Source: a candidate division FCPU426 bacterium
GTDB taxonomy: Bacteria; Oederibacteriota; Muellerivitia; Muellerivitales; Muellerivitaceae
Length of the DNA stretch: 23,669 nucleotides
Assembly: GCA_963847625.1 (NCBI GenBank)
Contig: CAWKAR010000005.1
Location: 1 to 23,669 of the forward strand
Direction: 5' to 3'
Below, piece by piece: positions 5,789 through 20,275 of the stretch. A model generated the notes under the pieces. It saw only the letters and a list, made by a program, of their open reading frames with translations, ran no database searches and had not been told where the DNA came from. The first letter of the stretch is position 1; each line of letters opens with the position of its first letter. The position numbers were made by a program, and so were the translations under genes.

Positions 5789-5875
5789 GGAGGGTTAGTC
5801 CTAATTGGTAAGGCAGTGGACTTGAAATCCACCGGGGGAAACCCCTTGCAGGTTCGAGTCCTGCACCCTCCGCCA
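5789..5875 (+). tRNA. tRNA-Ser, anticodon UGA
   Basis: Acceptor stem GGAGGGT/ACCCTCC plus G-CCA; anticodon arm GTGGA-CT(TGA)AA-TCCAC; long variable arm GGGG-GAAA-CCCC; T arm GCAGG-TTCGAGT-CCTGC. Confidence 0.97.
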
Positions 5876-6080: not shown

Positions 6081-6172
6081 GGAGAGGTGGCCGAGCGGCT
6101 TAAGGCGACGGTTTGCTAAACCGTTGGAGGGGTAATACCCTCTCGAGGGTTCGAATCCCTCCCTCTCCGCCA
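6081..6172 (+). tRNA. tRNA-Ser, anticodon GCU
   Basis: Acceptor stem GGAGAGG/CCTCTCC plus G-CCA; anticodon arm ACGGT-TT(GCT)AA-ACCGT; long variable arm; T arm GAGGG-TTCGAAT-CCCTC. Confidence 0.97.
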
Positions 6173-11947: not shown

Positions 11948-12598
11948 TTACTTATGGCGCTTTGTCCGGATCGAGTGCAGGTGTTCGCGCCACTCCTCCA
12001 TGTCGGCTTCGTCCTCGACCGAAAAATAATATTTGTCCTTGAAGGCGCCCTTGACGTAAACGACAACTTGCCCCTTCTTCGCCATTTCCACATGGCCGTG
12101 GCTGCCGGCCACCACCGCGCCTTCATGTGAAAAAATGCTGACCTGTTCTTTCTGGCGGATGAACTCGAAAAGCGTGCCGTGAAGGCGGCAAGAGACCGGG
12201 CCTGCTGTCACCTCAAAGGGGTAGCTCGGCGCCTTATCCAGCATCGTGATGAGGCGGCCCTGGGAGAGATGGAGGCGGCAAAGAAGTTTTTTGGATTCGA
12301 TATACCTCAAGCGCGAGAACTGGATTTTTGTGTTTTGGGCCAAATGGACATAGGCTTTTTTCGATAAACGCAGGACGGCCTCGCTTTTGGGGCCGGTGGT
12401 GATTTGGTCGCCGTCGTCCACGAACTGGCCGGTTCGCAGCCGGGTGGTCTCGTCCGTCTCATCCCGGAAGGCTGAAACTTGCCCCCGGACATCCAGGACC
12501 TTGAACCGGGGTTGGTCCTCATACTGGGCTTTTACCGCGTCAATATGAATCCCAAAGGTGAAAAAACCGGCCAAGAGGAAAAGAAGCAAACGACGCAT
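11948..12598 (-). CDS. Exported FecR-domain protein
   Basis: Signal peptide MRRLLLFLLAGFFTFG...AVKA; GDQITTGPKSEAVL, LAQNTKI, LSQGRL and FEVTAG...LHGTLF; GAGG before the ATG at 12598. Confidence 0.8.
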   Translation of the reverse strand: MRRLLLFLLAGFFTFGIHIDAVKAQYEDQPRFKVLDVRGQVSAFRDETDETTRLRTGQFVDDGDQITTGPKSEAVLRLSKKAYVHLAQNTKIQFSRLRYIESKKLLCRLHLSQGRLITMLDKAPSYPFEVTAGPVSCRLHGTLFEFIRQKEQVSIFSHEGAVVAGSHGHVEMAKKGQVVVYVKGAFKDKYYFSVEDEADMEEWREHLHSIRTKRHK

Positions 12599-12620
12599 TA
12601 AAACCTCGTTCATCAAAAGT

Positions 12621-12897
12621 GTCAGGGGACGGCCCTTCGCACCGCAGCGAAGGGCAGTGCTTCGGGTCGCCACTTGGCCGGGGAATGCGCCGATTCCCCA
12701 TAAGGCTTTTAAGAAAATCGGTGCTATACCGACCTCTATAAAAGCTTTATGGAAGGTCGGCATGAACCACGGCCAAGTACGCGGTTTGTGCCGATCTTCC
12801 AAAAATACATATTGAGATCGGTACCATACCAACTTCTTTAAATGCTTTATTGAGAGTTGGCATGTCCCCGGCTAAAGCCGGGGCCTTAAACAAACCG
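12621..12897. repeat. Structured intergenic element: four ~40-bp imperfect palindromes in alternating orientation plus enclosing stems
   Basis: Units at 12686-12724, 12725-12764, 12787-12824 and 12825-12864; 100-bp period; compensatory changes between units; extra stems at 12632-12655, 12672-12680/12770-12778, 12782-12789/12890-12897 and 12866-12883. Confidence 0.8.
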
Positions 12898-13015
12898 GTG
12901 GAAAGATTACCCTCTTGTAACGAAAAAATAAACTAAATCCTTGGGGGCTATTTCTTTCTTTTACGCCGCGCCGTAATATAACCTTTGCGTTTATATAAAA
13001 TCAGGAGGTATTCAT

Positions 13016-13255
13016 ATGAGCGAAGCGAAAATAGCGGCGAAATTCCCGGCCAAAGTGGATGTGGAGGCCGGAAAGACTTACGCCTGGTGTTCGTGCGGTC
13101 TCTCGGAAAAACAACCCTTCTGCGACGGACACCATAAAACCACCGAGTTTAAACCCCTCATTTTCAAGGCGGAGGAGTCCAAGACCGTTTTCCTTTGCCA
13201 ATGCAAACAAACAAAAAACAAGCCCTATTGTGACGGTACACATAAGTCACTTTGA
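13016..13255 (+). CDS. CDGSH iron-sulfur protein with two 2Fe-2S motifs (CISD3/MiNT-like)
   Basis: WCSCGLSEKQPFCDGHH and LCQCKQTKNKPYCDGTH; AGGAGG ribosome-binding site. Confidence 0.95.
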   Translation: MSEAKIAAKFPAKVDVEAGKTYAWCSCGLSEKQPFCDGHHKTTEFKPLIFKAEESKTVFLCQCKQTKNKPYCDGTHKSL

Positions 13256-13315
13256 CCGGTTTTAATCCAAGGGATTGTTTAACAAAGTTATCCGGGTTGC
13301 TGACTAATGAATTTT

Positions 13316-18886: not shown

Positions 18887-19279
18887 TTAGTTTTTCAGAG
18901 GTTTCAGCTTTTTAACCTGTTGAATCGAATCAAAATGCTTATCCAAGGTGAGTAACGGGAAATGATGGCGGGAGCAGAGTGAGGCGATAAGCCCGTCCGT
19001 GGCTGGAATTTGAATCCCATTTGCCCGCAAACTGTTCAACAATTCCCCTGCTTTTTGAAAATCGGCCCGTTCGGTTTCAACGTAAGGCAAAGCGGAAAAA
19101 AGTTCCCATAACATGCCTTTTTCCCCGGGTTTGGCGCCCTGGAGGAGTTCCAATTCAACCGGCCCGCACAAGACCGCCTGTTTTTCCTCCAAAAGTTCGT
19201 CCAAGGAATCGGCGGCGGGGCTTTGGCCCCCCCTGAAATATTCAACCCAAACGGAAGTGTCAACGAGGACGTTTGCCAT
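18887..19279 (-). CDS. vapC: VapC PIN-domain toxin
   Basis: VLVDTSVWVEY, ELELLQG, DGLIA and LLTLDKHF acidic PIN residues; overlaps the end of vapB. Confidence 0.92.
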   Translation of the reverse strand: MANVLVDTSVWVEYFRGGQSPAADSLDELLEEKQAVLCGPVELELLQGAKPGEKGMLWELFSALPYVETERADFQKAGELLNSLRANGIQIPATDGLIASLCSRHHFPLLTLDKHFDSIQQVKKLKPLKN

Positions 19280-19493
19280 AGGTGGACCGGTTTTCCTGGA
19301 TTTCCATCGATCGAAGCTTTTCCCAATTGTTTTCCAGGTAAAGCTTCCCGCGCAGGGACCTTAATTTCTCGATCTTCAGGTGCTGGACCCAATCCGCCAA
19401 AGCGCGATTGACCGCTTCCGTGCGGGTCTTGGATTGGGTGTATTTCATCAGCTTTTCTATCACGCCGTCTTCAATGGTAATGGTGGTTCGCAT
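19260..19493 (-). CDS. vapB: VapB ribbon-helix-helix antitoxin (DUF2191-type)
   Basis: MRTTITIED..........T..KTRTEAVNRAL...LRGK; GGAG ribosome-binding site; directly upstream of the PIN toxin. Confidence 0.88.
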   Translation of the reverse strand: MRTTITIEDGVIEKLMKYTQSKTRTEAVNRALADWVQHLKIEKLRSLRGKLYLENNWEKLRSMEIQENRSTYGKRPR

Positions 19494-19523
19494 TCCAAGC
19501 TCCTATCATCAATATCACCATAT

Positions 19524-19552
19524 ATTATATGCTGTACTAAAGCATCATACAA
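19524..19552 (-). promoter_or_regulatory. vapBC promoter with a palindromic operator in the spacer
   Basis: Minus-strand TTGTAT-17 nt-TATAAT; ATGCT-N7-AGCAT at 19529-19545. Confidence 0.7.
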
Positions 19553-19631
19553 TCCGGTATTTGGTGCTATTTAAAAAGATCAGGGGCAACAGTTGCGCCA
19601 AGAAACAAATCCAAGGCTACACCAATATCAA

Positions 19632-19922
19632 TCAATCCAATTTCAATAAACGTTCACTCCGCCAAACCCGGATGACCCAAACATTTTTCGTTTCAACATG
19701 ATAGATAAGGCGAAAAGGCGGCACGATCAATTCCCTTAAAAAAGGGACGCCGAATTCAGGTACGATTCTTCCCGAGTCCGAATATTTCGCGAGCCTTTCC
19801 GATTTATTCAGCAGTTCCGCTACCAAGCGAAGACCTTGATCGGGAACGACTAGTTCCCTGTAATAAAGAACCGTGTTTTCTAAATCCTTGAGGGCGGATT
19901 CGGTTAACCCGACTTTCAACAT
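19632..19922 (-). CDS. RelE/ParE family toxin
   Basis: TESALKDLE, SGRIVPEF....RELIVPPFRLIY and VIRVWRSER; abuts the antitoxin stop codon. Confidence 0.9.
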   Translation of the reverse strand: MLKVGLTESALKDLENTVLYYRELVVPDQGLRLVAELLNKSERLAKYSDSGRIVPEFGVPFLRELIVPPFRLIYHVETKNVWVIRVWRSERLLKLD

Positions 19923-20192
19923 TTATTTCAAGCCGAACTTAAGGCGGGCTTCCGCCACGCTCAATGTTTTTCCCTTTTCCACGTCTTTGAGGCCCTCCAC
20001 CACCGCCTTCATGAAGGCCCTTTCCTCGGCCTGGTCTTCATAATCGCCGATGGATTGGACGATGGCAACCCCCTTGCCCCGGCTGGTCAAAAGAACCGGC
20101 CGGTGAGCTTGCGTTACCTGTTGAATCACCTTGGCGGGATTGGCTTTCATCGTGGTCACTGGCACAACATCTTCCGAGAATTTAACGTTCAT
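19923..20192 (-). CDS. Phd/YefM family antitoxin
   Basis: KFSEDVVPVTTMKANPAKVI...HRPVLLTSRGKGVAIVQS; ATG at 20192 follows AAGGAG. Confidence 0.9.
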   Translation of the reverse strand: MNVKFSEDVVPVTTMKANPAKVIQQVTQAHRPVLLTSRGKGVAIVQSIGDYEDQAEERAFMKAVVEGLKDVEKGKTLSVAEARLKFGLK

Positions 20193-20275
20193 TGGCAGCT
20201 CCTTGATCCACCCCGCGCCCACCAGGGGAGGGGTGACGCTAGATCATGCCAATGGATAGGCCATTGGCAAAGGAT

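Follow-up and report, generated by a model that had tools for sequence, protein, structure and literature searches.

A stack of nested palindromic repeats between a FecR-domain gene and a CDGSH-domain gene, including a two-hairpin element that probably moves as single-stranded DNA

The window analyzed here is a 23,669-nucleotide stretch of contig CAWKAR010000005.1 from a candidate division FCPU426 bacterium (assembly GCA_963847625.1, hereafter G000), in which a FecR-domain gene (11948–12598, reverse strand; Pfam PF04773) and a CDGSH-domain gene (13016–13255, forward strand; Pfam PF09360) diverge from a gap that holds 279 bp of palindromic DNA. The start position of the fecR gene agrees with that in a genome of the same genus (G001), and the palindromic composite begins 23 bases upstream of its ATG. 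On the other side of the gap, the region upstream of the CDGSH gene (12902–13015) is conserved in G001, minus the element. An open frame of 885 bp, which starts with a TTG at 12832 and crosses the element to enter fecR, was rejected because G001 lacks the element and keeps an ATG at the position of 12598. Elsewhere in the window, tRNA genes are located at 5789–5872 and 6081–6169, and the PIN, ParE, and Phd genes at 18887–20222 are ordinary.

A sequence-only reading of this gap had described four palindromes, U1 to U4, repeating with a 100-bp period. All four are present with every motif quoted for them, U2 (12725–12764) and U4 (12825–12864) exactly as placed and U1 and U3 with arms that begin one base later than had been given (12687 and 12788). 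U2 and U4 end at positions that differ by exactly 100 bp, and 12686–12725 agrees with U2, taken as its reverse complement, at 24/40 positions. Both flanking hairpins and all three enclosing stems show no deviation from their description, and the compensatory changes between the arms exist in the sequence, with the structure conserved. When compared with shuffles, the folding of 12615–12905 gave z values of −7.4 and −8.3 for the two strands, matched by 0/200 shuffles. Contigs from three public DNA runs (X1–X3), which belong to one study and possibly to the source sample, span the two junctions at 99–100% identity, the left one over 12417–12657 (0 differences) and 12568–12787 (2 differences) and the right one over 12827–13070 (2 differences). 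This indicates that the locus is no misassembly. An Rfam search, which the same reading had proposed as a check, returned no relevant family at gathering score, giving only two tRNAs elsewhere in the window and two miRNA matches far below threshold, and no promoter or terminator match was found in the element.

Every part of the 279-bp stretch was found to be a dispersed repeat in G000. Alignment of 15 copies from this genome defined a host palindromic repeat (12621–12899, forward strand, as are all features below), which is bounded by GT at 12621–12622 and 12898–12899 and measures 101 bp when empty, the length here being due to three inserts. The first insert is an extra hairpin module (12632–12659), which adds 25 bp to the empty host, has edges ambiguous by a few bases, is present in 6/15 host copies, and also occurs alone elsewhere. 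The second is a doublet of U1 and U2, denoted D1, whose 75-bp body (12688–12762) is composed of hairpin U1, a central C-T-A (12724–12726), and hairpin U2; it is flanked by TG at 12686–12687 and 12763–12764, where the empty host has a single TG. A 22-bp host spacer (12765–12786) separates this insertion site from that of the third insert, the U3–U4 doublet D2, whose 74-bp body (12789–12862) is composed of hairpin U3, a central C-C-A (12824–12826), and hairpin U4, flanked by TG at 12787–12788 and 12863–12864. The right arm of the host (12865–12899), including a perfect hairpin at 12866–12883, closes the stack, and the sum of host, hairpin module, and two doublets counted with a TG (101 + 25 + 77 + 76) gives the 279 bp.

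The states of filling expected for such nesting were all found in G000: eight of the 15 host copies (100–102 bp) have no doublet, five have one, and two have two. The host at C33:127584 has neither site filled, that at C45:135889 has a doublet only at site 1, and that at C50:29410 only at site 2. The nearest relative of D1 is the site-1 copy at C45:135954 (89% identity) and that of D2 is the site-2 copy at C50:29268 (86%), whereas D1 and D2 share 65% with each other. Since the closest copies occupy the matching sites of other hosts, the 100-bp period corresponds to one doublet plus the host spacer without any duplication; it is incidental, and the stretch is neither one element of about 270 bp nor a local tandem duplication, as had been envisaged. 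G001 matches 12000–12621 and 12902–13264 with four bases between, so that the entire stretch is missing at the orthologous site. The host copy at C33 is also missing in G001, where a single GT is kept, indicating that the host repeat is mobile too. That the stretch consists of nested mobile repeats is hence regarded as practically certain. Separately, the host at C38:104392 (reverse strand) carries a single doublet with a D1-like first and a D2-like second hairpin and no spacer, as if a two-doublet host had undergone a deletion. One intergenic gap was also seen to hold different repeat composites in G001 (L229) and G000 (C50:29410), each with a doublet.

A profile built from 53 seed doublets located 155 non-overlapping doublet loci in G000 at E ≤ 0.01, of which 126 are near full length, and 0 in the reversed genome; this bears out the suggestion of a BIME-like single-stranded DNA element with many scattered copies. 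Three of these loci are probably counted twice, as the contig ends C45:67–269 and C63:93613–93824 are near-identical. Full doublets make up 120–126 of the 155 loci, and the empty sites lack both units. By covariance model, the family of about 75 bp was detected in 27/30 other genomes of the taxonomic family, with per-genome counts reaching at least 47, and in 0/68 other genomes of the phylum. No exact pattern match was obtained in viral contigs and no blastn match in plasmids, and a literature search, mostly outside subscription journals and supplements, did not find the doublet family described. Among 120 full copies, 117 lie outside long ORFs and 3 inside, and 73/155 loci have a neighbor doublet within 300 bp. 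The genes flanking other copies are unrelated to each other, the orientation classes of the gaps around copies equal the background, and both doublet orientations occur, with a mild bias in co-directional gaps (26 same versus 49 opposite, p = 0.011). Doublet orientation gave no signal against contig GC skew (38 versus 34), the skew itself being weak.

In G001, the doublet also forms head-to-tail arrays, including eight identical 75-bp units and eight identical 76-bp units, in which one TG is shared between units. Arrays of 7–8 units are located at L092:8388–8990, L094:2810–3346, and L094:10580–11190, two of them perfectly identical, and one G001 array stops some 150 bp upstream of a Y1 gene. 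Several variants were noted in G000. Longer doublets with extra hairpins in the second loop are found at C21:16355, 19735, and 25094, C63:92910–93052, C40:94774, and C45:80923, and a diverged TG-bounded two-hairpin family with 13 pattern matches, near 125.8 kb of C26 and elsewhere, stands head to tail with the main doublet in places. The commonest intergenic 14-mers of this genome include several more palindromic repeat families, and some of the 14-mers resemble a type I-E CRISPR repeat. At L092:7033–8465, doublets of equal orientation enclose a DUF433/DUF5615 gene pair, and doublet-rich islands hold other toxin–antitoxin genes, for which capture of cargo by doublets is possible. Shortly upstream of an ABC-ATPase gene that follows yceG, a doublet is found in more than one genome (L048 and L061, about 2500–2580), which may reflect either an ancient insertion that was kept or a hot spot.

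Covariation was evaluated on the non-redundant copies of the fetched loci (97 of 98, after exclusion of a short one) against shuffles that ignore relatedness. The two-hairpin fold was paired in 97.3% of cells and showed 138 two-sided changes, with such change in 10/17 pairs; 0/500 shuffles scored as high. The four-way junction of the earlier reading did not behave in this manner, as its outer (end-to-end) and central stems stayed at shuffle level, with a paired percentage reached by 184/500 shuffles. The terminal inverted repeats of about 6–8 bp were paired in 90% of cells, without covariation. The hairpins take in the inner base of each flanking dinucleotide, and they contain two nearly fixed irregularities, a G-T pair in the first hairpin (197/228) and an A-C mismatch in the second (214/228). 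The pattern of covariation supports two separate hairpins, which would make a dumbbell if the molecule is circular. Energy models also give a dumbbell for D2, and for D1 alone they predict a long hairpin even when circular. Homogenization by template switching could be an alternative source of the covariation.

The junctions of the doublet are defined to the base. Its ends read YR-YGCCRA and TYGGCA-YR, the flanks beyond them vary, and the dinucleotides at both flanks are equal in 108/120 full copies (TG 96, CG 8, and TA 4) and unequal in 12. Shuffles gave a mean of 87.8 equal pairs, 0/10000 being as high, and none of the 120 had TT on both sides. When the left and right flanks were searched separately, 510/512 paired matches were exactly 2 bases apart. 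Empty alleles were obtained for 45/108 distinct flank pairs at 258 positions (TG 130, CG 57, TT 42, TA 27, and other 2), a count inflated by hosts that are short tandem repeats. Doublet hosts include several other palindromic repeats, and a non-repeat case is given by the filled site at C19:167448, whose empty paralogue at C14:26369 has a single TG.

The target dinucleotide was further found to be linked to an internal base of the doublet. Among 228 distinct copies (115 from G000 and 113 from relatives), internal G is present in 15, all of which end in C and have C as the left target base, while left C occurs in only 5/213 copies without internal G. Because of relatedness among the copies and their frequent spread together with the host, the counts overstate independence; after merging by flank similarity, the link amounts to 3/3 versus 2/49 context-states (p = 4.5 × 10−4), and five distinct flanks were recognized by eye for the internal-G copies. 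Internal T accompanies A on both sides in four copies of one host, the link at the second base being less clear. CG targets with internal A mostly show CG..TG or CG..TT (4 versus 1 CG..CG). Because the last base and the target base track the internal base, the apparent duplication would be partly carried by the element and matched to the target, hinting at a choice of target that is set by the element.

The reading we consider probable for all of this is that the 279 bp are nested small non-coding repeats, among which the doublet moves as a single-stranded DNA dumbbell by an enzyme acting in trans, most likely an HUH (Y1) enzyme that nicks and joins. Its observed basis is the dispersal, the filled and empty alleles with two dinucleotides and one, the two-hairpin covariation, the arrays sharing TG, and the internal-base link. 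Taken by itself, a single-strand route of movement is quite probable, and the assignment to an HUH enzyme is tentative. Excision of the doublet at its two TG junctions would yield a circle of 76–77 nt. Within it, pairing of the joined TG to the central C-N-A would leave N without a partner, and the two fixed mismatches may mark the molecule for recognition. During strand transfer, these central bases would also check the target dinucleotide, and a rolling-circle-like re-use of the junction would generate the arrays. Neighboring hairpin repeats may recruit the enzyme, from which the nesting would follow. No regulatory role is needed for this explanation. Excision of a circle and rolling amplification are elements of BIME models in the accessible text of PMC3333891, and TnpA-REP is described in the available part of PMC8266576 as cutting single-stranded DNA within C|T or C|A near REP with selection by guide bases. 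The CA of C|A is TG on the other strand, so that the TG junction is compatible with such cleavage.

The doublet hence appears as non-autonomous DNA similar to REP, BIME, and REPIN, from which it departs in three respects, namely tag, long hairpin, and cognate RAYT. As in REP, the palindromic units of 37–40 bp are extragenic and present in many copies; as in REP, BIME, and REPIN, the unit of spread is an inverted pair of palindromes; and well-conserved tandem arrays and a C|A-compatible dinucleotide junction are shared with the repeats served by TnpA-REP (RAYT), as far as described in the accessible parts of PMC3333891, PMC8266576, and PMC3116915. The unpaired GTAG/CGTC end tag of REP is, however, absent from the doublet, whose units abut with one base between, in distinction to BIME and REPIN. 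A REPIN forms one long hairpin, whereas the covariation of the doublet keeps two, the long fold being favored by the energy model for D1 only. In a REPtron the RAYT gene is flanked by the repeat, for which no counterpart was found for the doublet. The nested REPs of Di Nocera (2013), in the portion of PMC3733652 at hand, are REP dimers inside other small palindromes, like the doublets, which differ from that account in using many host types, in the commonness of empty hosts, and in a junction known to the base. In the guide sequences of IS200/IS605, according to the available part of PMC8266576, bases of the element choose the bases of the cleavage site by pairing, as would those of the doublet; its putative guide is a two-base internal C-N-A suggested by covariation, and not a tetranucleotide 5′ of the hairpin.

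A cognate transposase for the doublet was not found in any enzyme hunt. No gene among Y1_Tnp, tyrosine recombinases, resolvases, Ssn-like GIY-YIG proteins, and recurrent neighbor proteins tracks the doublet or is flanked by it, and no gene-containing version was present among the center motifs of G000. Each of the three Y1 genes in G000 is bounded by GGGGTCAG ends of its own, with the nearest doublets 2.0 and 2.9 kb off or absent from the contig; such ends are similar to those of TIRYT, or subclass 2.1, in the accessible text of PMC6006769 and PMC3733652. A doublet was located within 1.5 kb of 0/28 Y1 loci of relatives and within 500 bp of 3/19 full Y1 genes in wider regions, some of which had been chosen for doublet density. 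Y1_Tnp was not found in G069, G073, G004, and G064, which are 98, 99, 99, and 89% complete and give 44, 26, 10, and 34 doublet model matches, respectively, and it is present in all three doublet-free genomes of the family. As separate observations, copies of an IS110-family element abut the GGGGTCAG terminal repeats of Y1 genes in L001 and L003 (G000 C39:22954 and C24:100257, on both sides at C24), suggesting that this element targets them. At L052:1940–2630, an Ssn-like GIY-YIG gene lies between CGTC-type hairpins, one of which is interrupted by a doublet; Ssn-related motifs (SRM/NTS) are repeats that flank the ssn GIY-YIG gene, and the L052 protein had no homologue in G000 at 1e-10.

Because near-complete genomes rich in the element show no Y1 gene, the enzyme may belong to a class that has not yet been linked to REP-like elements. 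This would make the doublet a self-guiding, 76–77-nt single-stranded dumbbell circle, in which two internal bases read the target dinucleotide, and which multiplies into perfect arrays and parasitizes hairpin repeats and start codons; we consider this version a minor possibility.

An unlikely explanation is that the doublet is moved by a site-specific recombinase, acting either on folded single-stranded DNA (an integron-like or Xer-like tyrosine enzyme) or on a 2-bp core (a serine or IS110-type enzyme), with TG as the crossover core matched in circle and target. Such core matching explains TG..TG, CG..CG, and TA..TA as well as the TG shared in arrays, and it suits a folded circle with dyad symmetry and an unpaired base, the lack of Y1 genes in some element-rich genomes, and a single-copy Xer-like gene in 30/31 family genomes. 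This gene (C60:99799–100836 in G000) scores below the XerC and XerD cut-offs and perhaps represents a one-enzyme dimer-resolution system; it is, however, also present in three element-free genomes. The targets, moreover, have little in common past the dinucleotide, and a doublet lies near only 1/12 tyrosine-recombinase loci, as a degenerate copy beyond a tRNA-like gene, and near 0/5 resolvase loci as judged by coordinates. Integron attC sites have the cores RYYYAAC/GTTRRRY and form same-orientation cassette arrays with an integrase, whereas the doublet consensus lacks these cores. An attC-like cassette was rejected on the mixed orientation of the doublets, despite the toxin–antitoxin pairs found between them in places.

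Still less likely is a classical MITE, in which a DDE transposase would move double-stranded DNA by the terminal inverted repeats YGCCRA/TYGGCA and duplicate a 2-bp target. The inverted ends, 2-bp direct repeats, and empty sites of the doublet would suit it, and the available text of PMC10969869 describes bacterial MITEs as non-coding, intergenic, shorter than 500 bp, and furnished with short inverted ends and short direct repeats, as is the doublet. The ends of the doublet, however, pair and covary with the internal arms and not mutually, and the right base that should be a duplicate tracks the internal base, so that the flanking dinucleotide is partly determined by the element; the unequal flanks at CG targets with internal A are not expected for true duplication. 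No parent IS was seen among the families listed, in which IS30, IS3, IS1380, and IS110 have ends that differ from those of the doublet.

That the stack regulates the FecR and CDGSH genes, whether as a structured RNA, as a leader, or as an array bound by protein, as the option of a non-coding RNA or cis-leader had implied, is very improbable, since its strong folding, covariation, closeness to the fecR start, and mild orientation bias are set against an orthologous G001 site without it, copies in both orientations beside unrelated genes in gaps of background type, equal folding of the two strands, and the empty Rfam, promoter, and terminator searches; the doublet stack is likely not a regulator of its neighbors, and it may incidentally affect how fecR is expressed.

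Nine of 233 copies lead into a frame of at least 150 codons, and seven of these are in frame from the left ATG or TTG, adding 26–28 residues, whereas 51/233 copies have a length divisible by three (p = 6 × 10−4, or 2 × 10−3 if two related genes count once). By eye, all seven proteins look secreted and have a signal-peptide-like N-terminus. The copy at C23:28682 has lost its right ATG, so that the element is probably translated there. In a further 71 copies from metagenomes, no convincing case of a start-codon location was seen. In-frame insertion that adds a short peptide to unrelated proteins is described for the palindromic elements of Rickettsia in the accessible text of PMC10969869; the doublet differs in that only 7/233 copies are in frame, all at start codons.

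The spread of REP-like repeats is still poorly understood, as stated in the available part of PMC8266576. The present family offers filled and empty alleles precise to the base, a natural pair of variants (internal A with TG and internal G with CG), and perfect arrays, so that short oligonucleotides would allow a direct test of the model of a circle and a guide when an enzyme has been identified. Our results illustrate that covariation in a gap between two genes, even when strong, does not have to imply a regulatory RNA, that what looks like duplication of a 2-bp target can in part be borne by the element, and that repeats of this kind can supply N-terminal peptides to proteins that appear, by eye, to be secreted.
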